64,000 nt of DNA from Psammoneis japonica (Eukaryota). This document shows positions 16,631 to 45,299 of this stretch, piece after piece. The position numbers and the translations under genes are program-made. Where the stretch lies: the NCBI GenBank assembly GCA_008632985.1, contig QPGO01000003.1, forward strand, positions 806,001 to 870,000. Direction: 5' to 3'. The notes beneath the pieces are model-generated. The model was not told the DNA's origin and searched no databases. It worked only from the letters and a program-made list of their open reading frames with translations. The first letter of the stretch is position 1. Every line of letters begins with the position of its first letter.

Positions 16631-16967
16631 GTCAATAAAAAATAAAAAGTAACAGCCGGCGTCTTTCAGGAATTTTGTGTTCTTTCTTCTTGCAGCTTGC
16701 CGCTGTTTCTGTAAAGGTCTATCCCACTCAGATTTTTTTTACCACAAAATCTATGAATTAAAAGTTTGTTGAAACTAGGTCTACTCGTGAATTGGATGTT
16801 TATTTTTCTCTTTTTTACTTTCAGATTGAGAATGAACCTATTTGATGCTGTAAGTCAGTCGCGCGTGAGTTTCAGCGACGACACAAGATTGCCGACGAAA
16901 GAGAGCTTGAGGTAGGGCCCAAGGCGGCGTCTACTAAGCTTATACGACCTCATTGAGATTATTGTAA

Positions 16968-19873: not shown

Positions 19874-19901
19874 CAGAGAGAGAGAGAGAGAGAGAGAGAG
19901 A
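19874..19901. repeat. (AG)n microsatellite
   Basis: About 14 AG units. Confidence 0.95.
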
Positions 19902-22900
19902 GGTCCAATGAGAGACAGCAGTGGTCCCCCTCTGCATGAGAGAGGGGTTGTCGTCTGCCGTGGCCTGCTTTCACGTGAACAGGTGCCCACGCAGAAGCAG
20001 GCAGTGCGCGAGCCTCGAGCTGAAGCATTTTTTCTTCAACGGTGTGCTGGCCTGTGCATTCTTGATGGGTCATGGCGGCCCACACAGAAAGCACAAAAGC
20101 ACAAATCTGCATCATCAAAATCACAAGATTGCCCGGTCTCATGAGCACACAAGTTTTTGGTGCCTTTTCATTGTGTTTGGCACAGCTGTCTTGGATGACC
20201 TGCTGGATTTGTGCCTCACAACACAAGCCAAGTGAAGCACAGGTGGCTTGTTCCAGCCCCTTTTGTGGCAATTTTTGCTCTCATCAATTGTGGCACCATC
20301 TTCAGCGCTCATTGCGGTCTGCCACAAAAAAGATGCGGCAAAATGTGATGGCTCATGTGCAAAGTGTTGCAGCAGATTGTTTGCAAAGCAAAAAACTGTT
20401 CTTGTGTCATGGCATCACAAACACAAGCCACAAAGCATCTGGAGCACCAAAGGCTGGGGCAAAAGCAGAGCTGCAAGAGGCGCTGAGGAGGCACAAGAAA
20501 TGTGGTGTGGGCGCAGGGGCACAAAACAACAACGACGTTTGTTCTTCCCTTTCTCTGCAGGAAGGGGGTGCCATGGTTCAGGTTGGGAAGAAAATTTGCT
20601 GTGCAATGTTCTCACAATTGTCAAGGATGCCAGTCACAGTGTCCATCACAACAGTGCCATTCTGAGTGGTTTGATCAGTGCTCGCCTCTTGATGGGCTCC
20701 CCGGTCGGGCAAGAAGAGTGTCAGGTTCACATGTCTGAGTGTTGACATTGCCCTCAACCCAACTTTGGAAGTTCATCCATTGCAAACCAATCAGATCATG
20801 GAGGTTGTGCACGCTGTTGGCACTGACCCAACTCTGCCTTCATTCTGTCTTTTTGCAGATTTCCAGAGTGCACATGCGCTGAACCAGCCGTTGCCTGCAA
20901 GGTGGATGAACAAGCCAAGACAAACTTCTGCCCTTCAACGCTGTTTGCCAATGCACTTGATCATTCATCTGGCTGGCATTTTTCTTCTTTTGGTTGCTCA
21001 ATCAGATTGTCTGACCTGCCATGGAACCCACGACACACTCAGTGGTCCACGAAATCCACAATGCCCACCACGGCCGCAAAGACAGCTGGTCATCCATTGC
21101 AACAATCCCAAGCTGCTTCTGGCAGAACAACACATGTGGCTTTGTAGACACCTCAAGGCCAATCTAGTTCATTCCCCTTTCTGGGAACATTTTTGAACCA
21201 AAAGCACTGCCAAGCTGCAACCAGACTTGCACATCTTTTGTGGACTGCCTGTCAGAAACAACTTCGTGGCTTCTCTTCTTGGGAAGTTGCAGCCGGTTGA
21301 CAGCAATCACACAATCCTCTTTCATTCTTGCATCTGGCTTGAGACTCTTGGAAACAGGGTTGCAAACCAAGAAGAAGGGCCCCTGGATTTCCTTCTGCAA
21401 CAAGCTTGGTCCAATGTGCATTTTGCAGGCACCATCATGTGTGGCCAACACAACCAGGCCAATGACCTCAAGTCCTTCAATGCCTGGTGTGCCATTGAGA
21501 TGGTCCAGTGTGGTTTTTTTTTTGAACCAATGGCAATCAATCCTTTGAGAGTGGCATTGCTGCAATTTGATTTCATGGGAACTCCAATGCATGAAGCATG
21601 CTCATTGTGGGCCAACTGTGATTTCAGAGCTGGATGGTGAGTCAAACAACAGGAAACTCAGGACAGAGACAAACAAGAACTCACTGGCAGATGTGTTGCC
21701 ACAACAGCCTCTGGCACAAAGGCTCTGCTTCCCTTTGTGGGTGACCACCACATCTGCTTTGCTGGTGATTTTGTTTGATGGTTGTGATGCTGTGCAGAAC
21801 ACTTTTCTTTGCACTGCAGCAAGAGCATCACTGCAATGATCCTTGCATGGCAGTGCATCATTGAACAAGGGCACCTTCAGGTTTGTGATGGACTGGGACA
21901 AGAGGACCTTGGAGGACCACTCTCCCTCATTGTCTGGGATTGGATTGTCAATCACCACAGCAAACAGCACAAATGAGAGGACCTGTGCCACGAGGTCTGC
22001 CGCAGTGTGTGGGGTTTTGTTTGTCCATTCCCTCTGGCAGTGGAGGACAGATGCAAAGATGTTGCCACAGCACTCTGCCATGAGAGAGTTTGCAACCCCA
22101 AACTGCCAATGTTTGGGTTGTCTCAGCCACAATGCACACACTCATCACCATCACTCTTCTGCTCCGGTGCCAAGAAATCACTGATTGTTGGAGTCCTCAC
22201 ACTTCCACCAAGTTCATTTCTCTTTTTTGTTCCCCAAAACACCACCTGCGCAAATTCATTGGTGCAGCTTGAATGGCGCTGAACTTTCTGTTTACACAAA
22301 TTATGCAGAACTGTTGCATGTGGTGATGGAGACCCAATTCCCAGTCATCATGAGATTCCTGCCTGCTTCTTGCAAATGAACTCTCAACACTGGCAATGCT
22401 CTCATGTGTGTCCATGGAGTCCCGTTGTCATGCTGCATTTGTTGCACCCACTCCATTGCATTCATGAAAATTTCTTGAAGGCCCAAGCAGATGTTCATGA
22501 AACAGTTGACAGATTTGGGATCTAAGAACATGCCGGCTGCTTTCAGATTGTCCGCCATAATTTTTCCATCCAGAATGGGTGGACACCACATGCACTTTTT
22601 TTAATTGGAGATGGCGGCGCACCAGTGATGGGCACACCCTGGTCATCTGCTCCTTCAGTGGCTGCAGAGAAGAATCTTTGGCAGTTTCTTCTTCTGCCAC
22701 TGCTCTGGGGCTTTGAACAGCATGTGTGACAGATCATGAAACAAGAAGATTGTGTGGGCCTCTTCCAGGATCAGCACCTTGTTGTTCAATGCCAGTGCCT
22801 GTGGCACATCTTTCAAAGTCGGATTCGTTCTTTCAATGCCACTGGCTGGCTCTGACAACATCTTGGCTTTTCTCCTCTTCCTTGTCAACCACATTGACCA

Positions 22901-23499
22901 CAACAAACTCATCCTCACACTTGGTGGCTGGGTGGCTGGCAAGCGTCATCTTCCCTGCCACAATGGGGCTGCACACAAACATGGCAGAACCTTCCCCAGT
23001 GCTGGTCATGATGCTCTTGATCAACCCAACGGTTGCTTCCAATGAAATGAAGACATCCTCATTCCTTTTCTCTTGAAGAGAACCTGCTCTCAGCCATTTG
23101 AAAAGCATCCAGTTGAACAGAATCCATTGTCCAGCAAATGTCATTTGTCTGAAACCCATCATGGAACAGCAAAAAATTTGCCTGTTGCACTCTCTGAGGG
23201 GGTGGTGTCCACTGCATTTCAGCAACTCTCAGGAAGACATTGTTTGTTCATCATTGATGATCTTGTGTGAAAGGTTTCTCTTGCAACCTCTGACCACTGA
23301 TGAGACTCCCACCCAGCCATCTGGTTTCAAGACGCTTTTTGCGAATTAAGCCATTTCAAAAAACACCACACTTGCTTTCACCATGAGAGCAAAAATGGTG
23401 GCTGGAGTGCATTTGTTGCACTGTGTTTGGACAAGATTTTGACATCTGATCTCATGCATTGACACATTGGAACATCTGGAGTTGCTGTGTTCTGGTCAT

Positions 23500-26400
23500 T
23501 GCACCCATGTTTTTGTGATTGATGCACCATGGTCAACCACCACCCAGTGGGATTTTGCAGGTCTCATGGTCAACCACCACCCAGTGGGATTTTGCAGGTC
23601 TCATTGGAAAATTGCTGGGTTTTTCTTTGTTCTGATGGCAAGAATCAATTCTCCTGCATCATTGTCATGTGTTTTGATGTTTGTTGACAACGGGGCTAGA
23701 AGCAAGGGGGGCAATGGCCAAAACTGGCCAAGCCAGAAGTGCCTTGGCCAAGCCAGCATGGCACACCTTTTGGTTGCCAGCATGACAGTTGTGGCAGGTT
23801 CAAGGTGCAACAAGGGCTTGGGATCATCTCACATGCTGATTGTGATGGTCAAACTTCAAAACAGGTGTCTTTCTGCCTTTCTGAGCCAAGAACTTCTCAA
23901 AAAGCACTCATCTGCTTCAGGAGTCAAAAAACTGAGTGGGGACAACAAAAAGTTTTCTGTGTTCTTTCCTTTTCTGAGAGCCGTCTGGTGGGCAGTGGAG
24001 CCCCTGGCAAGAAACAGTTCAAAACAACAAGCCATCAAAGTTGTTGGGGCCTTGAAGCTTGCTCTGCTTTCACTTGCCACACTGTCACTTCAACATGCCT
24101 CCCAGCTGTGATTGTCAAGAAATCACTCTCCAAGTGGCACTTGAATCACTTCTCAACAATGAAAAAAATTGTGATGATGTCAAGCTGCACAGGGGGCTGA
24201 TGGCAAACAAGTTCATGTGACACAGGCTCACCTCACTGTGCAGAGCATGGTGTCTCATTTCATGCAAGGCCACTCAGTCTGTCACAAATGACTGAAAAAA
24301 TGCAAGGATTTTGAGGCCCACAATCTCACTCTAAAACAACTGGAAGACGGTCTGTCCCTGCAACACAAGGGTTGTTGGAAAGTGGCCAAAGAGGCTGGAA
24401 ACCACCAGAAGGACCTTTCTCAAGAAACAGGCCAAAGAACCAGCCAAGGCAAATGAGTCCACTGCAGAAAGACAACTCCATGATCTCCTGCACAAGGAAG
24501 AACAAAGGGAACAGAATTGCAGAGTCAACCAAATCTCTTGCAAGCCAATGAGATCAGCCCCAACCCAACTGCTGAAAAAAAGAGGTCAGGACAACAGGGA
24601 AATCACCACTGAGGAAGAAATTGAAGATGTTTTGCTCACCAAGTGCAAAAACAGACTGCATCAGATGGAGGAGACTTGCCTCATGCAGGAATCACTGGTC
24701 CACAATGTCCAGTTTCTGGGCATTGGTCTGGCAGCCAACACAATGCTGCAAGGATCACACCAACTCACAGAAGGGACCAACGCACATGTTCAAGAATGCT
24801 TCAAACAGCTGAGTCACCCAAGAGGACATGAGCCACCCTCCCTCCCTGGATCACTGCCAAAGAACACATCCACTCATGGAAGTGAGACAGAGAAGATCTG
24901 CACCAGACCATCAGGGCCACATCCAGCCCACTTCCAAGCTTCATGCAACGGCCCTCTTCTTGCAAAGATGGGTGCATCTGTGACAAATTTCCCATGCATC
25001 ACCAGATGCACACCAAAAAGATGGAGGCAAGGAATGGACCTTCTTGTTCCCAAGAAGGAAGGTTGCAAATGCATTGACTTGCTCTGCCTGATGCTCTGTT
25101 TTGAGGTGCACACCAACAACAACAGCAAGTGCCTGGGAAGGAAGATGATGCAACACACAGAACCTCAAAATTGGACAGCCAGAGAGCAATGCATCAGCAG
25201 GAAAGGTCACTTGGTGGAAGAACAAGCCCTCAACAAGCAACAGACATTTAATCTGACAAGAGTGGACCAAATCACATTGGTCAACACAGCTGTTGATCTA
25301 CAATCATGCTGCAACTTGGTGGCATGCTCATGTGCATGGCCATGAGGAGCAAAAGGTGCTCAAGAAGTCCCAATTGCACGCAAATTCATGACACTGCAGT
25401 GCACAGAACACACAGTCAAGACAATCTGTGGCAGATCAGATGATTCATTTGGTGGAGTGCCTCTGCGTAACATGGTTTGACCCAACACACTTCAACCCTG
25501 AAGACAAACCCCTGCAAGGCCTTGGACAAGGCAATGGCAATGCCCCACAAACACAGTCAGCAGTCAGCATGCCTGCACTGGAGATGATGAGAGTGGCGGG
25601 CCATGGTGCTGCATTCAAATCATCCATCAGCAGAGGGTCCCTGAGATCAGTTGGCTTTGCGTTTGTTGATGACAGCAACTTGATGCACACAGCAGCAGAC
25701 TCACATCAACCAAGCTGGGAAGTGGCAGCTGATGCCCAACAAGGCCTGGACCAGTTCATCAGTGGAACGTGCATCACAGGAGGGGACATCCAACCCAACA
25801 AATGCTGGTGGCATCTCATCAAATTTGAATGGAAACAAGGAAATTGGCAACACATGGAGGAAACCATTGACCCATCTGACAAAAATGATCCTCACATGTT
25901 TGGATCTCCCATCTAAATCCAAGCCAAGCAACGGAGACTCTTGGTGTCTGGTTGGCCCCAGATGGCAACTGCAACAAAGTGGTCAAAGCCCTGTAGAAAC
26001 AAGTGGAGGCATGGGCTGACTGAGTCCGCATTGGTCACCTCACTGAAGCAGATGCATGGCTGTCTCTCACACAAAGAATGCAGAAAGCTCTTGACCACCC
26101 ACCACTGGCACTCATGGTCAACTCCAAGGAGTGCAGACACGTTGAAGCTCCTGTGCTTCAACAGGGCATCCTGAGAGCTGGATTGTGCTGCTCATTTCCT
26201 TGGGCAGTTGTTCAAGGACCCAATCACTTCCAAGGATGGGGGTCCAGTCAATTGAATTCACCATGCACAAGAAACACATTGAAGCATTGGCAAAACATGG
26301 CAAGCAACAAACTGTCACTGGCAATCTCATCTGCACACTTCTTGAAAAACACAAACTGGAAATTGGTGTGAGCGGTTAATTCTTGGACAAGCCATGCAAG

Positions 26401-28800
26401 ACCTTTGGTGTGCTGGTGACTCCTTTGGGGATTGAACACCTGTGGAAATTCTTGTCAGAGCACAACATCCATGTTGAAGAGGACACCCCCAACCTGCGCA
26501 TGAGCTGCATTGATGACTCCTTTCTCATGGAACAATTTGCAGACGAAGGCTTTTGGAGCACAAGACCAATTGCTCTCAACCATTGCCGCACATGCCTGTG
26601 TGCAACAACCACAGCCAACACAAGCTCTGGGGATGGCAAAGGAATTCTGGAAGCAGCATGGAACAGCAAAGATGATCCCTCCTTTTGATTGCCCCTTCAC
26701 TGGCCAATCCAAGGTGGGCCATCAGCTGCAGATTGGAACCTGTGGAGGATGGTGCTAAGAGCAACATTCACGAGACCCTCCAACGTGTGTGCTCAACAAC
26801 TGCAGAGGCCCCTGGGTAACTGGACAACCAAAAATGCAGATGACTTGCACTGGACATGGTTCTTTTCTCCATCCAAAGACTGAGTTTACCACAAAGCAGC
26901 AGCGGACAACTGGAAAGTCTGCAAGATGGCCAGCAGAAGATGGGCCAGGGCGCCTCACAGAAGATTTGTTCTGACCAAGGCAGCAACTCCTGTGGGAGAC
27001 CCACAACAGACAAGAATCCATTGGAGAGGCAGAGACACCTGGGAATTGTGTCACACTGGATTGGCTCCAACACAAACATGCCCCCCTGAACCACAATTCG
27101 AGACCATTGTCAACAGAATTTGACATCATCCGGCAAGCTCACAGTGGTCCAATGAATGCATTGCCAACAACAACAACACCTGGCATGTCAACCAAGCTGT
27201 CAGAGCTGCCACTGCTGTTGCTGCAAGTGTTGGGTGCCTCAGCCTTCACCACACAAGGGCCTCAAGAATCCAATCATGTCACAGGCACCAATGTCATCCC
27301 AGGCCACCAGGGAGATGTCAAGTCATGTTGTGTGGAAACAGCAGGTCTCTGTGGGATTGTCTGCATGGTTGAAGACATCTGTGCCCACCACAACATCCAG
27401 AAAGAATCCATCAAAGTGGCTTGCAATGGGGACCAGGCACTCAACAAGACGTTTGACCTCCATGGGCACATTGCACCATGCTCTGACAACTTTGCCCTGC
27501 CAAGTGAATGCCGCAAAAACCAAGTTGGAAAAAAGCAAACTTGAGCGGAAATTCAGGTGGGTCAAAGGTCATCAAGATGGAAAGCCAAGACATGGGCTGG
27601 AGTGATGGGCAAGACTCAACATCCAAATGGACAACCTTGCAAAAGCCAAATGGCAACAGGTCACCCGGTTGAATCCAGGCTTGATGCGGCTCAACATTGA
27701 GGACAAAATGTGGCTGGTCCACACAGGCAAGTGCAAAATGTCCACCAAACTTCTGGAACAATTGCTCAATCAAACCTGTGGCACCAAATTGGTTCACTGC
27801 TGGGCACATGAAAAACAATGCTTCTCATGACAGGGTTTTTCAAAAAGTGGGCTGGGATGCAATTGACAAAGCAGCAGACCAACTGGGAATCGGACACTGA
27901 TGCTGGCCAGCAAAACATGTGACTGGCATCTGCGGAGCAGGCAAGTGGCTGCAATGGTGGAAGCCACAAGACCACTCCCACTGCCCATGCTGTGAAGAAG
28001 ACAACAAAGATGTCTGACACACCCTGATCTGCCCAGAAGCCATGGCCAAGTGGAACAAACTGCTGTGGAAACACGTCAAATGGATGGATGACAACAATGC
28101 AGTGTTCGGGTTCTCTGAAGCAACACAAGAAATCATCTTCAAGCATGGAGAGCTCATGGCAACTTCCCTGTTGCATGCAACAACCTTGCCAGTCCAATCC
28201 TCCAACAGGCCATTCAATCTCAGCACATCATTGGTTGGAACAGGCTCCTGGAAGGCTGTCTACATCATTGGTTGGAACAGGCTCCTGGAAGGCTGTCTGG
28301 TGAGAGAGTGGTCCCAACTGCAAGATGAGCACTTCCGTCAATGCTCCTCCTGCAAAACAGGTGCCAAATGGGTGCAACGCTGGATCAAACAGCCAATCAA
28401 CATCCCTCAAGGCATGTGGAAACACCAAAACAATGCGGCACATCTGAAACTCACAGAACAAGCCATGCAAGAACTTGACACAGCTTTGCATGACACCATT
28501 TCCAATGAGGACAAGAGTCCCTTCTGTCAGAACATGGTTGCCACTTTTGTGGACACCTCATCACTCTGTTGTCCAACCACCACACACACAAGAGGTCATG
28601 GCTGGCCAATGTTGTTGCAGCCCAAGAACGCCAATCCAGAAAACTGGGTGTCAGCATCCAAATGAAAGCAGAGTGAGCCATGCCACACAAGTGGGTCACA
28701 GCAAGAATGCCAACAAAAGAAGCCACCAACACAAAACGTGATGAGGAATCACCCCCTCATCCCTCTTGTCATGTGCACACCCATCTCAGGACAAGACAAG
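23500..28800 (+). mobile_element. Degenerate non-LTR retrotransposon (Ambal-like: RT + RNase H + C-terminal Zn motif); ends approximate
   Basis: PKRWRQG.DLL.PKK, EQC.SRKG, QALNK, DLQSCC, QGLGQGNG, FAFVDDS, ETAGLCG, WVKGHQD, CPCC..H..CP, IGWNRLLEG; many stops and frameshifts. Confidence 0.8.
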
Positions 28801-30569
28801 CACCTCCAATGATTCTGCCTCCAACTTGGAGCAGTTGCGCTAGATTCAAGTTTCTCTTGTTTTGTTTCAGCTGTGCCAGGGACCTGCTCCATCAAACATG
28901 GACAACCAATGGCTGCATGTGACAATGCAGCATCCTGTGCCAGGGCCCAACCATGGTGGGACAACTGACAGTGATGCTCCTTGACATCAAGTTGAGTTTG
29001 CCTTGTTCAAACATGCCCCTCTTTAGATGACAGTCTGGAGCACTTCTCTCCAAAGTCTTGCAGCCAGCCGGCTAAAAGCCTGCAGAGGGCGCTGGCACTG
29101 ACCAGCAATCATTGAGTTGATTGATTGATTGAGAATCCTTTGGTCCTTTTTGGAGTGGGCACCTTTGTGGTTGGCAAGCCTGCTGTGCATCACAACTCTG
29201 CCAGACAAACTTGGCCATGTTGCTCAAGTGCATGCCAAGCAATTGACCCATGATGGCTTCCTTGTTGATGGACTTAACAGGCTTGCTGCTCTTCCCAGAC
29301 ACATTGGTTGCATGGCATGTGGTCATGCAGGCACTCTCATGCAACACATTCCAAGGTGCTGCTGCATGGCTGCAGCTTGATGCAACATGTGATGATGCAC
29401 TGCCACCCCTTGACCCAAAATCTGCTTGAGTTTGATTGCTGCAATGCACACCAAACCCAAGCAACAGAAGAAAACAGCGAGGTGTTGTTTGGGGTGACAA
29501 AACACATGAACTCATGACACAATGAGTTGCACAAAATGCCACACCTGTTTTTGTCTTTTGTTCTTGGCACCTGTGTCATTGCCAAAAATGTTGCAAATGA
29601 TGGAATGTTGACAGTTTTTATTCAAATTCCAAGCCAATGTTGGCAATGCTGTTGGTTGTTGGGTTTGGACATCATTTGGTTGTGATCTCACCAAGTCTCA
29701 GGGTTTCTTGTCATTTCTTGCCTTTTCTCATTGCTTCTTGCTCTTTGCTTCTCGTCACTTCTCATCATTTCTCATGCTTCTCATGATTTCTCATGTTTTC
29801 ATCATCTTGAGCAATCTCCCTGTCCAGTGGCAAAGCAGTGCTGTCAACAACTTTGGCCACTCAAGAGGTTTGCTGCTGGAAGCTCTGTGGTTGGTGGAGA
29901 AGAAATGGCTCAAGAAGCAACAGCAGGCATGGGGCACTGGGAGCCTTGTGCTGAAATGGTGACAAGATGCAGTGTTGATTTGTGTTGCTCTTTTGTGAGT
30001 GTCAGCACTGCTGCAGCTCCAGCCAAGAGAGAGATTTCTTCTCATTTTCTCACAATCTCTCATGATTTCTCACAACTTCTTGTCATTTCTTGTCCTTCTT
30101 GTGAGCTTGCATCACTTCTTGTCACTTCTCATCATTTCTTGCCATTTCTCATTGTGTGTCTGTTGAGAAATGTTGCTTGGATCTCTGCCATTTGACAACC
30201 TTTGGTTTTGCAAAATCACTTTGAAAAACAGGCAGCCTTGTTGGCAGTTGCTCCAGCTGTTGGTGCACAAACATGGGTGGCATTCATGTGTGCAATTGTG
30301 CTCTGCAAGAGCCTGAGTCACCAGCTTTGTTTGTGCCTTCATTGGCAACAACCACACCACCAGGAGTCAACACATGACACATGATGTCATTTGACAATGT
30401 TTGAGCAATGCACCACAACCACTGCACACAGATTGTTGAGGTTTTTCCATGTGGGATGTCCCAGGGTCTCTTTCCACCATGCATTTTTGTGGGTTTTGTG
30501 CAAAGTGCTGCTGGGTGGTGCTTTGGGTGCAAGGCCAAAGCTTTGTGTGGGAAACCATGCAGCCATTTC

Positions 30570-30813
30570 TGACAGGATTTGAACAAGATTTTAGTTTGTC
30601 ACACACAATTGTGTGTGCTCTTGGTTCCGCGCACGTCGCACGATGTAGTTTGCTTTCAAGCCACATGGCTCACAAGAACAATGACAGCAGTGCCATGTCA
30701 TGACACCAGTCTTTCGGCTCCTGCAGTGGTCTCTGAATGGAGACTTATCTGCCATTTAGACAGCAGCAAGGAGTTGTTGTTTACTTCCACCCAGTCATCT
30801 TCATTTTCTGTCA
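30570..30813 (+). repeat. 5' LTR
   Basis: 244 bp, about 90% identical to 37153-37397. Confidence 0.95.
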
Positions 30814-31626
30814 GATTGACAGTCTTGCTCTTTGTCATCCATTGAGCGTTCATCATCATCATCGAGAAATTTTTCGACAACGCGCACCGTTGGCGGTGGA
30901 AGCATGTGTCTGCCTTCTTCACTGCTGGACACTGGATTAAATCTGCACATTTGGATTTATCCAACACCTCTCATTGTTGGATGTGTTCATCAAACGGATG
31001 TTTCTTTGACCAGGAATTCCTGAATTCTCAAGCATCCGAGATTCCGGATTCCTCACAGCGGATCCTGCTAATCCATCTGCTCGCGTCCACGTGCACACGA
31101 TGTGAACCCTTGACTCTGGCCCTGCTTCGCACATGCCAAGTCTACCGCCTTACATCTGCACTGGATTGCTGGTCTTCTGCAGTCCTGCAAGGTCCACGAG
31201 GACAACTGTGAGAGGAAGCAGTTCGTGATTGCAGCCTGTGTTGGGGCGAGGGTGCATTTCCCACATTTGTTCGTCCCTCCACAGCGCCAAATTTGGCCGG
31301 CCTGATCGGGTTGTCCAACCAATGTAAAACAAGAACAGTTCGGAGGTCTTGTCCACCTCTGGCTGGCTTGTCAGCAGAGGTTTTTTACCCGTTGCTCCAC
31401 TCTCAGGCAACCCAAAGCGTCGCCAGCTGCGGGTTCGGACGTGCCGGCACAACCCTGCAGACCGGATGGGAAGCTTGGCACTTAACTACGAATGGGACAT
31501 CACAGCCCAGCGGCTTCTGACTCTTGAGATAGTTCAAGACATCAAGTCAAGATTCAAGTCAAGTTTCAAGCCATTTCAAGCCCACACTCCAATTTTAGCC
31601 AGTTCCAACATCCACCCAGTTGCAAC

Positions 31627-34600
31627 ATGGTCCTCACCAGGCAACATCAAATCAATGGCCTCAAGCACATTCTAGGCACTGTCCTGAATCAAGCCGCAGA
31701 CAGTCCATTGCGCTCCACCCTCAACATTGATGGAACCGATTCGCATCAGGACCTTTTCACTTTTACACCGATGCAATTGGATGCCCTTGTGCACAATGAC
31801 GGCACCAATCAAATGCCCTTGCCACGTGGTTACAAAGCACAGACAGCTGCGCTGATTAGCCTGTACACGGCAAAAGCGCACGGCGGCACGGATGTCAGCA
31901 ATGACCCTCAATTGTTCACGCAAGAGGAGTTCACCATCTGTTGTCTCAGTCCTGAGCATGCAGCGTCCCTCTCCATGGGTGCAGCACCAACTGCTCCCAC
32001 CCCTGGCTCGTTGCCACCCAAACCACGTGATCCCATGCGTGACTTTAAACGAGGCATCAAACGTGACCCACTCACCTTCGCGCTTCTCAAGTCTGACAAA
32101 CAGCGGCACACATGGCACACCCCCATCATCGCACAGGCCTGCTCCCAAGACATCGCACGCATTCTCGATCCGACGTGCACAAGCCCTCTGCAGCTGAGGA
32201 CAAGGCCCTGTTTGCTGAACAACAGAAGCACATGTTTGCCGCATTTGAACAGATCTTGCAGAATGACAAAGGCAAGGCTCTTGTTCGTCAACATGTCGGC
32301 TCCTCTGATGCTCAAGCGGTGCATCGTGATCTCTCCAAGTGTGCCCTTGCTTCCACTCGCGCATCCCTGGAGTCCTCGACCCTTCTCACGCACCTCACCA
32401 CTGCTCGCCTCAGTGATGGCACCTGGAAAGGATCCACTCATGCCTTCATGCTCCACTGGCAGGACCAGCTCCGCAAGTGTGAAGCTCTTGTCCCGGGTGC
32501 GGACCATTTCTCTGCTGGCCAGAAACGTGTCATGCTTGAGAATGCTGTTCATCCTGTTGAGGAACTCCGTTTGGTGAAGAATCAAGCCGATCAGTTCCGC
32601 ATGCAGAATGGAAAGGGGCTCTCTTATGAAGAGTGCTGTGGACTCCTGCTTTCTGCTGCAGCACAGCACAACAGCACGTTCACCCCCAAGACGGCTCCTT
32701 GCACTCCACGCCATGCCATCTACGAACATGACCTGGTCCCTGATGACCCTGATGATGATGCATTCTTCGACATCGACAGTGATGTTGACGTCATCCAAGC
32801 TTGTGCTGCATGAACTCGCGGCAATTCCCTCACCAAGGAACAATGGCGTTGCATCCCGCCGGACCATCAGCGCATTTGGGACACCTCACCCCAATCCACC
32901 AAGGCCATCATGCACAACCTCCGCATTGGCAGCGATGGTGATGTCAACTTGTCCGCCCACACTCACGATCTTGCGTCAGCCTCTGCACAATTCAACGCTG
33001 CAGCCGATGCAGCCGATGCCAACCCCATTCTGGCTCATCTCACCAGGCGCAAGCCTCTGCCACCCGGCAACTTGCAACGTCTCCTGGCCCCTGAACGGCC
33101 TCCTTCCGCCCGTTCTGGTGAGAAACCGCCCGGATCCACACCTTCCGTCCACTCCGATGCGAAGCCCATTGACACTGACATTGAGATCAACGGCCATGAA
33201 TGCCGTCGCGTCAAGAACCACAACGTTGTCTGCTCTGCCTCGACCCACAAGTCAACTCGCAAAGGTGCTCTCGTGGATCGTGGTGCAAACAGCGGTGTTG
33301 CCGGTGATGATGTTCGTGTCATTGCCCGCACTGGTCACCAGGTTGACGTCCAAGGCATCAACGATCATCAACTGGTTGACATTCCCATTGTCACTGCCGG
33401 TGTTGCCATCCACATGCAACGCGGCCCTGCCATTGCCATCCTTCACCAGTGCACCTGCACTGGAAAGGGGAAGATGATGCACTCTTGCGGCCAGCTCGAG
33501 TGGCACAAACACGATGTCAACGATTGGTCCATCAAGGTTCCCAATGGTCTGCAGCGCATCACCACTGTTGATGGATGCGTCATTCCCATCGACATTAAAG
33601 CCGGCCTCCTGTGCGTTGCCATGCGCCCGCACACCGACACCAAATGGGACACTCTGCCACATGTTGTCCTCACTGGTGATGACACATGGGACCCATCTGT
33701 CCTTGACCACCAGTTCGCCAATGATGAAAAGTGGTGTGATGCCATGTCTGACCTCCAAGACGACCCGACTGCCAACCTCTTCGATGAGTTCAGCAACTGT
33801 TGTCACCGCCATGTCATCAACAACGCCATGCTTGCAGACTCCGTCCTTGATGATCACCTGCTCCCGACATCTGATTTCTTCTACGAATGCCATGAGCGCA
33901 AACTCCATCCCAAGGATCCCGACTTTGAGTCCCTCCGCTGCCACCTTGGCTTTCTCCCAAAGGACACTGTCCACCGCACTTTTGATTGCACGACCCAGTG
34001 TGCCCGCATGCCAACCAGCATGCACCTGAAAAAGGCGTGCAAATCGCCCAACCCGGCTCTCAATGTCCACCAATGTGATGAACCCCTTGCCACCGACACG
34101 GTCTGCTCCAGCACCCCTGCCATTGACTCTGGTTGCACCAGCACCCAGCTCTTTGTCGGCACGGAATCTCTTGTCACTGACATGTGTGGCACCAAAACTG
34201 ACAAAGAATTTGTCACCACCCTTGAGGACAACATTTGTAATCGCGGTGCCCCGTCCAAGCTCATCAGCGACCATGCTCAGGTTGAGATCAGCAACAAGGT
34301 TCTTGGCATCCTTCATGCCCTCTTCATCTCTAGTTGGTAAAGCGAGCCTCACCACCAGCATCAGAATTTTGCTGAACGCCACTGCCAAACTGTGAAGACC
34401 ATGGCCAACACTGTCATGGATTGCTTCAGCTCACACCTGGCTGCTTGCCCTGATGCATGTGTGTTTTGTGCTCAACCACACGGCGTCCGCCAAGCTCCAC
34501 TGGCGCACCCCCCACCGAGGTGCTGTCCAGCTCTGCTCCTGACATCAGCCCGCTCCTCCGCTTTCAATGGTGGGAACCCGTGTGCTGCCACCTGGATGAT

Positions 34601-37165
34601 TCCGACTGGCCGTCCAAATCCCGTGAATTACGTGGTCGCTTCATTGGCATCGCCGAACACGTTGGTCACCAAATGACGTTTAAGATTCTTTCTGATGACA
34701 CTCAGAAGATTCTCTGCCGTTCCAACGTGCGCTCCGCCCGTGATCCGTCTGCTCCAAGCCTGCATCTTGATCCTCCTGACAAGAAATCTGCTGACCCTGT
34801 CATTAAATCCCGCCACCACTCCGAGAATTTGCCAGATTCACCAGATGGGGAGGCGATCAGGATGCCCAAAATGCCGGTCTTTGACCCCAAGGATGTCACA
34901 GGACGCACCTTCCTCATGAAGCCACAAGAGGATGGACAGCACCACAGAGCCCGCATCGTCAAAGCCGTTGAGGACCACGACTGGAAAATTGGAGGCAATC
35001 CTGAACTGGTCAAGTTCATTTGCTCCGTCAACAATGACGAATGCGAGGAAGTCCCAGCCTGCAATGACATCATGCACCACATTGAGCAAGAAGACGAGGA
35101 CTCAACTCTCTGGAAGTTCTGACGCATCACATTGCACAAAGGACCATTGCGACCCCATGATCCCTCTTGGAAAGGCTCAAGCTACAACGTCATGCTTGAA
35201 TGGGAGAATGGGGAGATCACGTCTGAACCCCTTGCCATCATTGCCAAGGATGACCCCGTCACCTGTGCCATCTACACGCGTGAGCACGGCCTTCTAGAAA
35301 CTGAAGGATGGAGACGTCTTTGCAAGATAGCACTTTGTCAGAAGAAGCTGTTCCGCATGGCCAACCAAGCCAAGTTGCACTCCTTTTGCACTGCGCCACG
35401 ATGCAAGTGCGGGTGTGAAGTGCCACGGGACTTCAAGCATGCCATGGCCCTTGATGAGCGCAATGGCAACTGCAAGTGGGGAGACGCAACAGACCTTGAG
35501 ATGAGCCAGCTTGATGAGTGCAAGGTCTTCCACGACTGTGGACACCACAAGGATTCCAGTGCTCCATCGGGACACAAGAAGATCCGGGTGCATCTCATCT
35601 GCAACGTCAAACATGATGGATGGCCCAAAGCAAGGCTTGTTGCCGATGGACACCTCACAGACGTGCCCATCGACAGTGTCTGTTCCGGAGTGGTGTCTCT
35701 CCGTGGCCTGCGAATGATGATCTTCCTGGCCGAACTCAACGAACTAGAGACCTGGGCCACTGACATTGGGAATGCCCACCTTGAAGCCACGACCAAGGAG
35801 AAACTGTACATCACAGCAGGCCCCAAGTTTGGTGACCTGGAAGGACACATCCTTGTCATCCACAAGGCCTTGTGCAGACTCTGCAGCTCCGGCCTCAGAT
35901 GGCATGAATGTTTTGCCGATTGCTTGCGTGCCAAAGGCTTCTTTCCATGCAAAGCCGAACCCGACATCTGGCTGCACAGGAATGGTGACCACTGCGAATG
36001 CGTGGCAGTGTATGTGGATGACCTGGCCTTCGCCATGAAGGACCCCCAGGCTTTTGCAGACACCCTCATGGAGAAGTGCAAGTTCAAGCTCAAGGGCACT
36101 GGACCATTGGAGCTTCATCTTGGCTGCGACTTCACCCGTGACCCAGATGGCACCCTGTGCCTTGCTCCCTGCAAGTGCATTGAGTGCATGGTTGACAACT
36201 GCACACACCTCTTTGGGGAGAAGCCCCGCACTGATGTGCTTTCACCCCTTGACAAGGGTGACCACCCTGAGCTCGACACCTCCGAATTGCTCAAACTGGA
36301 TGGCATCCACCAATTCCAATCCTTGATTGGATCCCTGCAATGGACTGCATCTCTGGGTCGCATTGACATCACTGCGGCTGTCATGTCCCTGTCCAGCTTC
36401 CATGCAGTGCCCCGTCAAGGCCACCTGGACCGTGCCAAATGCATCTGCGGATTCCTCTCCAAGATGCGTCATGGCACCCTCCGAGTGCGCACCGAGGAGC
36501 CCGACTGTTTGGACCTTCCCAAGCCCGTGTGCGGTTGGGCTCAATCCATGCATGGGGAGGCAGAAGAGCTGCTCCCGCAAGATGCGCCCGAGCCACTTGG
36601 CAAGTTCGTCACCACCACGCACTGCATTGATGCGAACTTGTTCCATTGCATGCTCACTGGATGCTCTGTCACCGGCATCCTCCATTTCCTCAATGAGTTT
36701 CCGGCTGATTGGTTCTCTTAGAAACAAGCAACAGCAGAGACTGCTGCATGTGGATCCGAGTTCGTTGCCGCGCAAGGACGTGTGTCAAGCAGATCATCAA
36801 TCTGCGCGTCACTTTGCGTCACCTTGGCACCCCCATTCTCGTGAAACATGTTGCATGTTTGGGGGGACAACAAGTTGGTTGTGGACAGTGCTGCCATCCT
36901 GCACTCCAAGTTACACAAGTGACACACCACCCTCTCGTTCCATCGTGTGCGTGAGGTGATTGCCTCCGGTTTCCTTGAGCTTCATTTTGTCGAAGGCTCC
37001 CGCAACCCGGCTGACATCCTCAGCAAGCATTGGGGTTGCTCCCAAATCTGGAACCTCCTTTGTCCTCTAATGTTTTGGAACTTCGATCCCAAGGCTTTCA
37101 ACCAATCCAACTTCGAATCTGTCACTGTTGACCCCTCAAGCAAACTGGGGAGTGACAGGATTTGA
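31627..37165 (+). pseudogene. Copia gag-pol, disrupted and Tyr-depleted
   Basis: LVDRGANSG (PR), GAPSKLISDHAQVE and QNFAER (IN), ARLVADGH, DIGNAHL and YVDDL (RT), NPADILSKHW (RNase H). Confidence 0.9.
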
Positions 37166-37397
37166 ACAAGATTTTAGTTTGTCACACACAATTGTGTGTG
37201 CTCTTGGTTCCGCGTGCGTTGTGTGATGTAGTTTGCTTTTGAGCCACATGGCTCACAAGAACAATGACAGCAGCGCCAATGTCATGACACCAGTCTTTCA
37301 GCTCCTGCAACGGTCTCTGCACGGAGACTCATCTGCTGTTTAGACAGCAGCAAGGAGTCATTGTTTTCTTCCACCCAGCACTTTTCATTTTCTGTCA
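37153..37397 (+). repeat. 3' LTR
   Basis: 245 bp, immediately after the PPT. Confidence 0.95.
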
Positions 37398-38475
37398 ATT
37401 TTCAAAGGAGTGGCAAGAAAGTTCAAGCCACCTCTTTTTGTTTTTTCCATCAACAAATGACATGGCACAGAGGATTTTGCTCTGCAGCCAGAGGGAGGCA
37501 AAGGACACCCAGGTGTGGCGGTTCTTTCCACCAACACAAAAAATGGCCGTTTGGCGATTTGCTCTGACCACACACATGCTCTGTGCCAGGTGTGAACATG
37601 CAAAGAAAAGGCATTGATGGCATCATGCCCCATGTGCAGGGTTGGTCCCACAGACACTTCCAAAACAAGGCAGCAGCAGCAGAGTGGGCATTTTGGCCTG
37701 TGGCACAATGGCAGCACTGTCCTCACAACAGAGCAACATGACCAAGACAGCGCAAGTGCAAAATTCCACCCCTTCTGCAGGAAGAGTCACTGCGCGAGCT
37801 TTCCAGACCCTGCACAAGAGTTCTTGAATGAGCCAGTGCAGAGCCCCCTCCTCCCACCACATGAGGAAAACTTTAGAATCACTTGCCCAGCCCTCCCTTT
37901 GAGGTGCCTTGTCAAGAGCTGGCGGGGTGCCATGGGGTGCGCGAGATTGCTTGTGCCACACACATCTTAAATGCACGCCCATCCTAAAGCATGTGATCAT
38001 GTCTTCACATGCCACGCACAACCACATCCCACTGCGACGCCACAAGGGATTGACGCATGGTGCGACCTGCAGATGGACGATGTTACGGAGTCACCGGAAT
38101 GGTCGAGCAGACCTAAATTCAAAAAATGATTGACCTGCCGACCGACCTGCGTGCCTCTGGCCTGCGCCTGCATGCCGCCCCGTTGACCGTTGACCGTTGA
38201 CCGTTGACGCGACCGTTACCATACAGTAGTTGCAAGCACCGCGCCATCGCCAACATTTCTCTTTGCTATTCGCCACTCTAGGCTATCTACCGGTAATTAA
38301 CTTTTGCCATCATCTTCTGACCACAGAGTACAGAGTTTGTTACAGTGCACAGTGCAAAGGACCCTACCAGCGCATTGTTTATTGCTTCTACACTGTGCAT
38401 CATTATTCATATTATTTTTGTGTGTGGGGATGTTCCCTATTTCAGCGTGACTGTCTCTCCCGTCGAGCAGAAAGA

Positions 38476-41234: not shown

Positions 41235-42019
41235 TGAAACAAGATCGCAGCCAACCACTTTTGATCTGTAAAGAAAACTATCTTGCACAGGATCGAAGCA
41301 TTTACACATTCTCGTCCTTGCGAAAAAAGAACACGAACAGGATTTGCTATGTATGTGAAAAAGTGAGGAGGTGAGAGTTCTTGCGAGCGTTGAGCGTTGG
41401 AGTGGATATTAATTAATAATGAACATACCGTATATGTTCCATACAATGTTAAATATCAACAAACGAATCACTTTCAACTTTTATTTTAAAATTGTTGGAC
41501 ATTTATTTTTAAAATTAAAATCGAAAAAACTACAGGTACTGCATGTATGTGCATACACGATTTCCCACGCAGCGCCGTTGTGCGCGAGTGCCAGAGTGCT
41601 AACCGAAATCCGATCTCTGTGCCGATGATCAAGAATAAACCCTTTCAGTTTTCAGACAAAGGCCAAACCACAGCATGCCGTACATAAAATATGTAGAATT
41701 CTACGTCAACACTTTACCGTGTTGTAAATCAAAATCACGTGGTGAAAGCACGGTGAAAAGTTTGAGGGGTGGAGAACGTCCACATGAGCATGCAAGTGGT
41801 TCAACATTGTGCAACTGTTGCCCAACACATGCAAAGGTTGTGTTAACTTGAAGCTTTTGCCAGCAGAGATGTTGGATCAAAAATTTTGGACAACCCTTGT
41901 TTCGACACAGTGAAGTCGGTGAATCGCTCGCCAACTGGCAGGCAAATCGCCAGCAATTAACTGGAAATGCTTTGTGAGGCTCCAAATGACTGACAAAGTA
42001 GATTCTTTGGCAAAAGATC

Positions 42020-43250
42020 ATTGTGCATTGTCAAGCATGTCTGTTCAATCAGCTTGCACAGTCAAGATGTGCCCCAGCGTCAAACAGGGCAGAGACAACA
42101 GATTGTCTCTTTCCTTTTCGTGCTTTCACTGTGGTTTCCATTTTTGAACATGGTGAAATGCGCACACAATTTTGTGCCAAGCACTGCAGCATGCTGTGGT
42201 TTTGCTGGCTGAAAGAGTTTGTCGAGTGCACACACCGCGTTGCAAAAGAAGGTGCCAAATGGCTGGATTCTGTCATCGTTGCCAATTGTTGGGCCAACGT
42301 TGATTGTTTTGCTTGTTGTGTTGCAATGAGTTGCTGATCTGGCTGAACAGAGCAGTGGCAAGAAGCTTCCTCCATGTTTTCCCGGCCCACCCACTTGGGA
42401 ATCTCCTGGTTGCTGGTGTGCATCTGACCAGCCACAGCTTGGGAGCTGATCCCCACCGGGTGCCTTGCAAGTCACATTGACCACCTTTGCACAAGCAAAA
42501 AGAAACACAGATTGGCACACAAGAGATGGTTGCACGGGCAAGTTGGGAACAGGCTCCCATGCAAAAGTGCAGCAGCCAGTTCCCCAAATCAGTTTTTGAA
42601 ATCACTGCCAGAGCCTCCTGTTGCCAGCTGCTGTTGACTGCTGGAATGTCCACTTTTGCTGCCACAGGATGACTCACTGCACCTCAAGGAAGATCTGTTG
42701 GCATTGGCACCATGAGTGAGGCCACATGCAGCAGAGAATTTCTTCCCCCTTCAGCGATGTTTTGCAAACTCTCAGATTGGAAAGCCGTGGCTGCAGTCCT
42801 GGGACACCTGCTTTTGTGTGGGTTGAGGTTGATGTGGCAAAGAACTTTGGCCTGTTCCAGCCCCAGGTGATGAGAAATCCATCAAACAAGAGGCCAATTT
42901 TCTGTGCAGTTTGGCACATTTGATCTTCAAGTTTGATCGTTTCGAAAATCGAAAGGTGAGTGTGCACAAAAAAACATGAGTTTTGTGTGCACTCACCCTT
43001 CGATGTGGGAAAAACCTGATTTTGAAGGAGTTCAATGCACTGAATGCAAAATTGTGATGGGAGTCAAACCTGTGCACATCACCTGGAGCTGCAACAGGCC
43101 CGCTGGCACAATTGGTTGCAAAGATGTCACCTTCGTTCCTCTGCACAATCTGGCATGATGGCTCAGACAATGTCCAACACAAAGAGAGATGCCCCACAAC
43201 AAAAGACAACAGCAGCTTGATGTCAACAAAACCCCTCCATCATTTTTCAG
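42020..43250 (-). pseudogene. Eroded copy of the 53060-54600 gene-like sequence, with a ~630-bp deletion and a MITE insertion
   Basis: 42230-42423 aligns with 53210-53407; 42425-43230 aligns with 54035-54590. Confidence 0.7.
42849..43100. mobile_element. Eroded MITE with 24-bp TIRs and an internal hairpin
   Basis: ggcctgttccagccccaggtgatg / catcacctggagctgcaacaggcc; empty site in the paralog at about 54445; hairpin 42950-43003. Confidence 0.8.
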
Positions 43251-44149
43251 AATTTGCTCTCTTTTCTCTTTTGCACTGCTGCTCTGTCAACCAAACTCCT
43301 GAACATGTTTTTTGTGTTCAATGGAGGTGAAAATCAAAAATCACATGAGAAAATTGTTTTTTGCACCACATGCATGAATCTCCTGTTCAACTGGTCCATC
43401 TCTTCAATGACTGTGTCCTCCACAAGCTGGCATGTGCTTTTTTGTTGTCTCTTGTTGCTCTGTGTGTGAAGCAGACATTGTTGCCTCGTCTCAGATGATT
43501 GATGGGTCTGTGCGGGAAATGGTGTTTTTAAGGCATGTGCATGAGTCACGTGCAGCGTCACAATGTCGGACAGACAACGGTCATGCAGTTGTTGCGATTT
43601 GCATGACAAACTGCTGTTCAAAACACCGATGATGACAGTGGCACTTTTCGGATGCTCTTTGAGATTAAAACTTGGCAATGGGCGCTGGCACATTGATCAA
43701 CTGTGCTGTTGTGAACACAAGTGTGCAAAGAAAGCACCCGGACAAAGTCTCAATCATTCAACAATGAATGCACAAAATTGACTGGTGCAAAAACAGAGCT
43801 CAGCATTGGTGTGATGTTTTGCTTTCACATGGAGGTTGCTTGTGGGGACTTTCATGACTGAGCACATTCTCAAACATGACCAAATTAAATGTCCACAATG
43901 CTCAAACATTGAAGATGCACATTGCTGTCATTGCAACAATGCACCTCCATCATGTCAAAGATTTTCAGCAATGAGGCATGCAGTGCACTGCGCACTTCTG
44001 GCACAGTGGAAAATCCTGAAAAATCAAATCGTCCTGCCTGCACCCTTTCTTCTGCAATTGCCTCAAGCAAAAAACAAAGAGTCTGTGTGGTTGACCATTT
44101 GCAATGCCAACTGCGCAGCTGCGCACAATTTTTCTGCTTGATGAGCTTG

Positions 44150-44472
44150 TGCATTTTTGACACAACTTTGACACAACTTTTGGCACAAACCAAACTTGTG
44201 CCACATTTCTGAAAATGCACATCCGGGTGTTTTTTGATTTTCACAAGACTTCCAGTGCAAACTCCACACAAAAAAATAAAACCCGATGTGCATCATTTTG
44301 AAAGTTGTGTCACACATTTTGAAAAATGTGTGCACGGGTTCTTTCGTGTGCAGAAGTCTGGTGCATTCCCACACAACGCAAAAGTTGGGATGTTTTCAAT
44401 TGTGCACATCCAGGTCTTTGCACACCTTTTTTGTCTCACAATTTTTTGTGTCAAATGTTGTGTCTAAAAATG
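44150..44472. mobile_element. Possible eroded foldback element or MITE
   Basis: Imperfect inverted repeats catttttgacacaactttgacacaa / ttgtgtcaaatgttgtgtctaaaaatg. Confidence 0.5.
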
Positions 44473-45299
44473 TCTTTTCTTCAAGGTGGTGTTGGCAATG
44501 AATTTGTCTTGTCTGACAGATTTTGTGCTGGCAGGCACAATTCACATCAATTGTTTTGACACACAGACCCAATCACTTGGGATGCAGACACTGGCCTGCT
44601 CATTCATTCCCCCAAACGTCGGTGCAAGAGGGACCAATTTTAGCAATGACTTTGCCCCCATTTAGCCTCTGTCAAAAAGGGTGCCTTTCACAGCTGTGGG
44701 CTGTTCCGCAGGATCAACTGCATCCTGACACTGCTGTTTGACACTGGCACATGTGACCCTGCGTCCACATCTGATGTGTCCCCACTGCTTGAAACTGGGC
44801 ACTGTTGACTTGCATTTGATTTGGATGTGCTTCAGTGCAAAATTGTTCTTCTAAGAAAATCATCCTTGAACAATGACCACATGCTTTGTGTGTGCAAAAT
44901 GGCAAAATCAAATGCAAAATGCAGCCATTTGCAGTCACTTGGGAGGAAATGGTTCAAGAGAGATGATGTTGAAGTGAAAATCAAAATTGACACACATGGC
45001 ACAAGTGCAATGAAAAACAAGCCTTTTGTGGGGGCACTGACCACCATGCTCATGTGGAACAATCAAAATGTTCAGAAACGAGGACAGAAGCAAACAGCGC
45101 TCAATGTCAATGGGAATCACTTAAAAATGTCGAGTTGGTCACAATTGATTTTTTGCATGACGAAAAATGCAAAATCATGTGGAAATGCACACAATGTCAT
45201 GCAAGAAAGTGATTTGAGCCAATGACTTGGGGGAAGTCAATTGAAATTCATCTGATCACAAGAGCATTTTGATTCACATGTGGGAAAGAGCAACACCCT

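Follow-up and report, generated by a model that had tools for sequence, protein, structure and literature searches.

Why should the two long terminal repeats (LTRs) of a single retrotransposon, both copied from one template at integration, read CA in one LTR and TG in the other at site after site? The question is raised by a Ty1/Copia element of the diatom Psammoneis japonica, found at positions 30570 to 37397 of a 64,000-nt stretch of DNA (GenBank assembly GCA_008632985.1, contig QPGO01000003.1, positions 806,001 to 870,000 of the forward strand). This whole stretch is what we call the window, and all coordinates given below are window coordinates. Because both LTRs derive from a single template at insertion, the differences between them arose after insertion, and a site with CA in one and TG in the other therefore implies one hit in each LTR. 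We propose that the element is an old, dead Copia and that a DNA-level process confined to repeats has converted TpA and CpG to TpG or CpA in place in this diatom, a reading to which we assign a probability of about 0.65.

Reciprocal differences between the LTRs of a Copia element

Repeat search and MAFFT alignment over the 64-kb window identified one LTR retrotransposon in the region. The element is a Ty1/Copia: it presents direct LTRs with TG...CA ends, a short target-site duplication (TSD) and a Copia-type reverse transcriptase domain, RVT_2, which Pfam matched in pol with an E-value of 2.2e-19 (70.5 bits against a cut-off of 31.6). Its parts are as follows.

30565..30569, + strand, 5' TSD, ATTTC, read directly, with one C/T mismatch to its partner at 37398-37402
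30570..30813, + strand, 5' LTR, 244 bp, TG...CA termini, 89.8% identity to the 3' LTR
30814..37152, + strand, Copia internal region, degenerate and frame-shifted, TA observed/expected ratio (o/e) 0.11, CG o/e 0.63
34454..37087, + strand, pol (reverse transcriptase/RNase H part), a single frame with 4 stops, from Pfam RVT_2 and tblastn
37147..37152, + strand, purine run GGGGAG adjoining the 3' LTR, read directly; its position suggests a polypurine-tract role
37153..37397, + strand, 3' LTR, 245 bp, TG...CA termini, from repeat search and alignment
37398..37402, + strand, 3' TSD, ATTTT, read directly

The differences between the LTRs were classified by script on a 245-column MAFFT alignment. Five of them are CA/TG reciprocal doubles, the same sites that had been listed by eye in the original prediction (no strand assigned; all from the alignment).

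Site 1, 30632..30633 CA versus 37215-37216 TG, inside a CpG cluster
Site 2, 30639..30640 CA versus 37222-37223 TG, flanked by two CG that the 3' LTR turned to TG
Site 3, 30657..30658 CA versus 37240-37241 TG
Site 4, 30753..30754 CA versus 37337-37338 TG
Site 5, 30775..30776 TG versus 37359-37360 CA

The other differences also correspond to what had been predicted, namely one TA/CA site, about six sites with CG against TG or CA, few further changes and a single TSD mismatch. We counted one TA/CA site and six CG-versus-TG/CA sites (five CG/TG and one CG/CA), and the remainder comprises three other transitions, four transversions and one indel column. The two LTRs have 3 CG, 3 TA, 24 CA and 19 TG in common.

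Random substitution does not generate this pattern. When 20 transitions and 4 transversions were placed at random on the 5' LTR in 200,000 trials, the mean number of CA/TG doubles was 0.34; the maximum was 4, reached in 23 of the 200,000 trials, and five or more doubles were found in 0/200,000. Two further repeat pairs of the window were compared in the same way. A pair of normal composition (38465-39509 and 58479-59544) presented 2 CA/TG doubles over 1070 columns with ~170 substitutions. In contrast, the pair 42425-42851 and 54035-54451, which lies in DNA depleted in TA and CG, presented 16 doubles over 430 columns, with 4 CG-versus-TG/CA sites, zero TA and one shared CG. This pair is older than the Copia pair and shows the saturated end state.

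The substitutions are unevenly placed along the LTRs: the first 62 bp (30570-30631 and 37153-37214) are identical and all 24 substituted positions are found in the other 182 bp. The calculated probability of an identical start of this length at a uniform divergence of 9.8% is ~0.002. This fits either the lack of ancestral TA and CG in that part or gene conversion.

Loss of tyrosine and arginine codons in pol

We next aligned pol (34454-37087) to 51 homologues of at least 760 aa and tallied the columns conserved at 70% or more. The window copy retained Tyr in 3 of the 27 conserved Tyr columns, and the others read Cys (14), His (4), Phe (4), Trp (1) and Val (1). TAY was thus changed to TGY or CAY in 18 of 27 columns, or in 18 of the 21 where Y, C or H is found (a loss of 0.86). 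Arg was retained in 18 of 31 conserved columns (15 CGN and 3 AGR), with 13 of 31 lost to Cys (7), His (3), Trp (1), Gln (1) or a TGA stop (1); at the codon level, 13 of 28 CGN became TGN or CAN (a loss of 0.46). Other residues were largely kept: all conserved Pro (27/27), Trp (12/12) and Asn (11/11) columns were unchanged, and 343 of the 432 conserved columns were retained overall. An earlier tally, based on a 529-aa open reading frame (ORF) with 60 homologues, led to the same result.

Both strands were affected in pol, as His and Gln products are present besides Cys and Trp. These results show that both TpA and CpG were converted to TpG or CpA in repeats, on both strands. The losses in pol fall at conserved Tyr and Arg codons and other residues are largely kept: the depletion of TA and CG is mutational.

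The same imbalance is visible in the overall composition of the protein, with Tyr at 0.8% and Cys at 6.2% in the window copy against 3.6-5.2% and 0.8-2.2%, respectively, in the pol of relatives. The search for homologues of Copia pol returned 2,263 sequences; among the 120 listed, all have PF07727. The relative P0008 aligned to Copia pol by tblastn with 59% identity over 879 aa. Pfam matched no ORF upstream of the reverse transcriptase to an integrase, gag or protease domain, presumably as a result of decay.

Islands depleted in TA and CG

The composition of the window was profiled in 1-kb steps, with borders rechecked in 100-bp steps, and proved to be bimodal in TA and CG. Five islands of depletion were delimited from dinucleotide o/e (no strand assigned).

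19800..38200, island 1, depleted in TA and CG, an older repeat of no named family with the Copia nested inside
42000..49800, island 2, depleted in TA and CG
52000..56000, island 3, depleted in TA and CG, with a repeat in common with island 2 at 76-81% identity
56400..58300, island 4, depleted in TA, less so in CG
62800..64000, island 5, depleted in TA, continuing past the window end

The islands contain 0-7 TA per kb (o/e 0-0.1) and are enriched in TG and CA (o/e 1.6-2.2). CG o/e is 0.05-0.3 in the older repeats versus 0.53-0.75 in the Copia interior. The remaining segments (1-19800, 38200-42000, 49800-52000, 56000-56400 and 58300-62800) are of normal composition, with TA o/e of ~0.4-0.9 and CG o/e of ~0.8-1.2, genic DNA being at ~0.5 and ~0.9, respectively; the outlying step 62001-63000 (CG o/e 0.63) spans the border of island 5. 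The GC content is ~0.48 in islands and normal segments alike, as the GC gained at TA makes up for that lost at CG. Nearly every TA and most CG are gone from the repeats of the window, and the LTR pattern is a local view of this larger process.

The borders of the islands are sharp at 100 bp. At island 1, for instance, TA falls from 2-7 per 100 bp to 0 at ~19800 and returns at ~38200. The conversion is confined to repeat segments. The normal segments contain host genes (U-box, CBS, V-ATPase subunit H, GT64 and PAP_fibrillin), and the named relatives of the V-ATPase subunit H protein are all from diatoms, with a best identity of 76%. Pfam detected no transposable-element domain among 45 ORFs of the older islands, with one sub-threshold chance match.

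Several local features of the profile deserve mention. Positions 56000-56400 form 400 bp of normal composition (6-10 TA and 5-9 CG per 100 bp) between two islands, which shows that the process tracks segment borders tightly. At 47001-48000 and 57001-58000, CG o/e (0.59 and 0.53) is well above that of the neighbours and TA is just as low (0.08); these CG-retaining stretches, together with the Copia, indicate that TA loss runs ahead of CG loss. The pair of repeats at 38465-39509 and 58479-59544, of ~1 kb and 82% identity, lies in DNA of normal composition and shares 20 TA and 32 CG. TA and CG are therefore intact in a duplicated sequence, and duplication alone is an insufficient trigger.

This depletion has a marked effect on reading frames. 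The + strand of the Copia interior contains 11 TAA, 9 TAG and 140 TGA triplets, and because TGA is the only stop that remains in number, 39 ORFs of at least 80 aa overlap across 7 kb. Likewise, TAA and TAG are almost gone from 20001-38000, 42001-49500 and 52001-56000, where 45 stop-to-stop ORFs of at least 130 aa were found.

Sequence context and strand of the losses

We used the TA contexts of normal segments as a rough baseline for the TAs that survive in the islands. The counts for two groups of contexts are given below.

Purine-TA-pyrimidine, ATAT: 0 island survivors, 90 in normal segments
Purine-TA-pyrimidine, ATAC (GTAT): 2 island survivors, 179 in normal segments
Purine-TA-pyrimidine, GTAC: 2 island survivors, 97 in normal segments
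Pyrimidine-TA-purine, TTAA: 25 island survivors, 51 in normal segments
Pyrimidine-TA-purine, CTAA (TTAG): 30 island survivors, 98 in normal segments

An additive effect of the 5' flank in the order A > G > C > T reproduces most of the ten context classes. The TAs common to both LTRs are found in TTAG, GTAG and TTAG, and the three surviving conserved Tyr codons in CTAC, CTAC and GTAT. Surviving island CGs are enriched in GCGC, CCGG and CCGC.

At conserved Tyr columns, the ratio of Cys to His is 14:4 (two-sided binomial, 0.03). A net sense-strand bias in the Copia interior was rejected, as TG represents 0.47 of TG+CA, and we attribute the 14:4 bias to flank context rather than to strand bias for this reason. 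The contexts of the products and the Cys:His ratio suggest that the adenine that is hit precedes a pyrimidine; a hit on a thymine that follows a purine fits equally. We also considered a strand-coordinated (processive) clustering of TG versus CA, which was rejected: runs tests on the islands gave z from -0.3 to 2.5, with no excess of long runs.

Timing of the losses and age of the element

The LTR pair provides an estimate of CpG loss after insertion, since 6/(6+2x3) gives a loss of 0.5 per LTR. This matches the 0.46 measured at CGN codons of pol. Because the loss in the LTRs equals the cumulative loss in pol, the element was essentially unmutated for CpG at insertion. By extension, it was probably also unmutated for TpA, since an element that had already lost 18 of 21 conserved Tyr is hardly conceivable as a source copy. 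That conversion took place after insertion is certain for CpG and follows by logic for the reciprocal sites, which supports the original prediction that, in place and after insertion, a palindromic dinucleotide common to both LTRs (TA or CG) was lost from each of them independently, by hits on opposite strands.

The prediction that LTR dating overestimates the age of the element is likewise borne out: the 24 substituted positions give a divergence of 9.8%, and this value falls to 2.9% (7 positions) outside TA/CG-derived sites.

Relatives and other copies of the family

We searched for relatives of the element in metagenomes and in public sequencing runs. The 78 metagenome loci with pol relatives (57-68% identity) present a mean TA o/e of 0.74 (minimum 0.49) and a mean CG o/e of 0.85 (minimum 0.22), and none of these loci has a 1-kb window with a TA o/e <0.2. 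Four pol relatives (L061, L018, L021 and L005) are CpG-poor (o/e 0.21-0.28) with normal TA (0.42-0.56); L018 contains 2 stops, and the frames of the other three are intact. This type of element is thus CpG-poor in other hosts with no loss of TA, and the two kinds of depletion can be separated.

No homologue of the LTR was found in the 78 loci. A degenerate LTR pattern in which CA, TG, CG and TA are all written YR, and which matches both window LTRs, gave 0 matches in metagenome contigs and 0 in viral contigs. A purine/pyrimidine-recoded BLAST of the LTR against the 78 loci returned short matches only, with uncalibrated E-values, and was discarded.

One public run, X1, contains 41% of the 31-letter words sampled from the window, and the family is extremely repetitive in it. 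Its contigs yielded 11,747 pieces at 80% likeness or more, of which 1,490 are at 99% or more, 2,770 at 95-99%, 4,602 at 90-95% and 2,885 below 90%. Contig matches elsewhere amounted to 20 in run X3 and none in run X2. The differing places in X1 are for the vast majority transitions: we counted 203 A>G, 328 C>T, 319 G>A and 285 T>C places, against 144 with transversions. Letters per site were available for 35 listed rows, all in the Copia interior; shares reflect contig depth rather than numbers of copies, and the letters of a dinucleotide are tallied separately and are unphased. With this reading of the numbers, other X1 copies present CG at several window CA/TG sites: 34529 (94% of depth), 34941 (93%), 36408 (89%), 36440 (73%) and 34616 (64%). 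At three further sites they present the T or A that would make TA, again unphased: 34535 (48% of depth), 36475 (62%) and 35055 (93%), the last being a site whose neighbor, 35056, is also different in most X1 copies (A>T, 78%).

The X1 contigs bear on other parts of the element as well. The sole LTR indel (30694 / 37277-37278) has an A in the 3' LTR, nothing in the 5' LTR and a G in six X1 contigs (14% of depth). This makes the site a further former CpG, which turned into CA in one LTR and lost its G in the other. Both LTRs also contain an identical, perfect 18-nt palindrome (30600-30617 and 37183-37200), made of four successive CA in the left arm, then AATT, then four TG in the right arm. In one X1 contig, where other sequence takes the place of the palindrome, some left-arm positions hold TG and CG, and the arms may be former CpG or TpA runs that were converted before insertion.

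Finally, an X1 contig of depth 49.7 spans the flanks of the Copia (30560 to 37409) without the Copia, with 15 other letters at the joint. Its left flank shows several differences, transversions among them, and the contig resembles a paralogue of the host repeat that lacks the Copia. Immediately upstream of the insertion site, at 29686-30156, we observed a family of direct repeats, each 40 nt long and spaced by 10, 49 and 362 nt, composed of TC-, CA- and TG-rich words. A third copy of the LTR was not found within the window (BLAST, word size 7).

Ancestral state of the reciprocal sites and alternative explanations

Were the five reciprocal sites ancestrally TpA, CpG or both? We approached this with a rate model that takes its loss rates from pol, places flat priors on the ancestral counts and, by assumption, regards the three TAs common to both LTRs as refractory. 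With CpG and TpA together, the probability of exactly five reciprocals is 0.095. With CpG alone, at the measured loss of 0.46-0.5, it is 0.019 (~0.035 for five or more). In 306 accepted draws, the posterior for the number of CpG-derived sites among the five was 0.18 for none, 0.24 for one, 0.24 for two, 0.18 for three, 0.12 for four and 0.04 for all five. Former TpA and former CpG most likely both occur among the five sites, a mixture that is favored by ~5:1 over CpG alone; the support is modest and falls short of proof. A model of uniform TA loss in the LTRs was rejected (2 of 3,000,000 draws accepted) and a context-dependent loss was preferred. The failure of the uniform model is itself, within this modelling, evidence for context-dependent survival.

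The rate model bears directly on the best-surviving alternative: ordinary methyl-CpG decay alone, with all five sites derived from CpG and the TA depletion either older than the insertion or unrelated to the LTR differences. Ancestral CG at all five sites, an objection that the original prediction had itself named, receives the posterior of ~4% just given. The alternative draws on the six CG-versus-TG/CA sites and three shared CG of the LTRs, on the position of sites 1 and 2 within a CpG cluster, on the CG that is read at site 1 in one contig overhang, on the CpG at the indel site in six contigs and on the small number of TA differences between the LTRs. However, it makes five reciprocals improbable at the measured rate of CpG loss, and the element has lost TAs in conserved Tyr codons, which a copy still able to transpose would be expected to retain. 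We consider it unlikely.

Several observations nonetheless weigh against a joint loss of TpA and CpG in place. The TA loss could largely predate the insertion. On the TA side, the evidence from the LTRs is indirect, as the pair has only one TA/CA site and three shared TAs, and a uniform TA loss of 86% is incompatible with the survival of these three, whose refractory status is assumed. The sole direct hints on the ancestry of LTR sites favor CG: an unaligned overhang of one X3 contig, of insecure register, has CG at site 1, and in the six X1 contigs mentioned above the G at 30694 makes a CG. TG and CA are distributed without strand-coordinated clustering in the runs tests. Lastly, the basis is one 64-kb window and one run, possibly the window's own sample.

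A second alternative is that the element is a recombinant, or that recombination between elements, or gene conversion, brought together LTRs of two diverged copies, so that the differences predate the insertion. The TSD mismatch and the concentration of all substitutions beyond the first 62 bp of the LTRs could be read in this way. However, the TSD flanks differ at only one of five bases, and at such divergence a single transition within 5 bp is expected and unremarkable. Only 7 of 244 positions differ outside TA/CG-derived sites, which makes the LTRs otherwise close relatives, and the donor copies would still need independent in-place mutation, leaving the main inference unaffected. A recombinant of two subfamilies, which the original prediction had named as a possible objection, is thus unneeded, and we regard it as very improbable.

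Editing of RNA or cDNA during retrotransposition, by ADAR-like A-to-I or APOBEC-like C-to-U changes, would account for the excess of Tyr-to-Cys over Tyr-to-His changes, which fits sense-strand A-to-G, and editing of LTR retrotransposons is described in vertebrates in the available part of PMC4866542. Such editing takes place before integration, on one strand, and its products are common to both LTRs, whereas here the LTRs differ reciprocally and pol was hit on both strands. Edits made on a single LTR template cannot make the LTRs differ, least of all reciprocally. Moreover, the changes in pol include His and Gln besides Cys and Trp, old repeats without a recognisable retroelement domain are equally or more depleted, and the TG share of the Copia interior shows no sense-strand excess. 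We therefore rejected editing at the retrotransposition stage as the origin of the LTR differences, and it has very little probability left. The argument against an RNA-editing origin made in the original prediction holds for the LTR differences; it does not extend to every change of the internal region.

The least credible explanation is an artefact of base calling or assembly at modified repeat bases, which has nothing direct in its favor beyond the fact that run X1, which holds the stretch, is possibly the source sample, and which would require errors at ~90% of TAs that settle on TG or CA individually at each site, are not the same in both LTRs and end within 100 bp at repeat borders, in the face of the X1 words and of the contig pieces at 99% likeness or more.

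Comparison with known processes

Decay of CpG is a textbook process, and to our knowledge, TpA hypermutation is known only from a 2026 preprint on Bigelowiella natans. In the part of that preprint available to us (10.64898/2026.01.13.699255), of the 231 mutations recorded in two viral regions integrated in mutation-accumulation lines, 230 were A>G or T>C, and all of these transitions were at TpA, at a rate of ~6e-7 per site per generation. This hypermutation is described there as arising de novo on chromosomal DNA, in some lineages only, and its authors propose a DNA adenine deaminase.

The likeness to our window is substantial. As far as the available text of the preprint goes, TpA becomes TpG or CpA according to the strand, in place on chromosomal DNA, and the affected segments are foreign or repeat segments only, clustered, TpA-poor and rich in CpA and TpG. 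According to the same text, the TpA-poor genes of B. natans show an enrichment in reverse-transcriptase and transposase domains. The repeat segments of the window are likewise clustered, TpA-poor and rich in CpA and TpG, with transitions at TpA. The differences are also clear. B. natans is a rhizarian (a chlorarachniophyte) and the host here is a diatom; the targets there are giant-virus and virophage insertions, versus a Copia and repeats of no named family here. The reported Rho is 0.45 in the giant-virus region, with a cluster cut-off of 0.43, whereas the depletion here is near saturation (TA o/e 0-0.1). Mutation in our window is not exclusive to TpA: CpG was lost in the same segments (13 of 28 CGN codons, 6 LTR sites and a CG o/e down to 0.05), whereas the term 'CpG' has 0 occurrences in the available text of the preprint. 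A preference for purine-TA-pyrimidine flanks is seen here. Finally, de novo mutations were measured there, whereas the evidence here is historical (an LTR pair and codon decay).

Methyl-CpG decay, as in vertebrates and plants, turns CG into TG or CA in repeats, and reciprocal CA/TG sites are expected from it when both copies are hit. The depletion of CpG, the gain of TpG and CpA and the CG-versus-TG/CA differences between copies are all present in the window. This process leaves TpA untouched, however, and can give neither a TA o/e of 0-0.1 nor the decay of Tyr to Cys or His. For diatoms, the consulted part of PMC9998398 describes transposable elements as the main targets of CG methylation and reports that loss of DNMT5a removes this methylation.

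Repeat-induced point mutation (RIP) of fungi resembles the present pattern in that transitions occur at one dinucleotide, are confined to repeats with sharp borders and kill transposable elements in place. RIP changes C to T mainly at CpA and enriches TpA (e.g., PMC2621366, as far as its available text goes). We rejected it, as TpA is nearly absent here and the direction is opposite, with TpG and CpA being created. The 82%-identical 1-kb repeat pair of normal composition is, in addition, untouched. The available text of PMC9998398 describes diatom DNMT4 enzymes as related to fungal RID, with a function that is not known; a link between DNMT4 and the process described here is a lead only. APOBEC and ADAR editing of retroelements shares deamination-type transitions in LTR retrotransposons (PMC4866542, in the part available) and differs in the timing and strand pattern set out above.

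In the literature that we searched, from which subscription journals were largely absent, we found no report of TpA loss in diatoms, nor of a joint loss of TpA and CpG in repeats. What is new here is the host lineage, the retrotransposon and repeat targets, the near saturation, the coupling to CpG loss and the flank preference.

Proposed mechanism and implications

Under the explanation that we favor, a DNA-level process confined to repeats would convert TpA and CpG into TpG or CpA, with the struck strand deciding which of the two is produced. Each LTR would decay separately after insertion: about half of the CpGs of each LTR have been lost and, judging from pol, probably ~85% of the susceptible TpAs. 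When the same dinucleotide is struck on opposite strands in the two LTRs, CA would face TG. The CpG arm may consist of 5-methylcytosine deamination at methylated repeat CpGs, by analogy with other diatoms. The TpA arm, given the like signature, may be an in-place hypermutation of the B. natans type, presumably enzymatic, with a preference for purine-T-A-pyrimidine flanks. Adenine deamination in DNA would be the simplest chemistry, and a lesion on the thymine of TpA would give an identical signature.

A bolder and more tentative version, to which we attach a small chance, is that a single diatom defence system deaminates the adenine of TpA and the (methyl)cytosine of CpG in silenced repeats, with the LTR doubles as its footprint. 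This joint claim would entail a natural, context-specific DNA adenine deaminase, whose activity would have erased every TAA and TAG stop and most Tyr and Arg codons.

These results have practical consequences. Dating by LTR divergence is inflated ~three-fold in such genomes, as seen here. Gene callers are misled by mutated repeats that are almost without TAA and TAG and open in six frames, which would produce many spurious genes. LTR pairs constitute a natural experiment from which the rates of both losses can be measured genome-wide.

If the in-place loss of TpA is real in diatoms, a process measured only in one rhizarian alga would reach a second major phytoplankton lineage. It would act on retrotransposons, to saturation and coupled to CpG loss, and it would explain the dinucleotide statistics of such genomes. 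Finally, it would suggest that an enzyme capable of editing A in DNA at TpA exists in nature.

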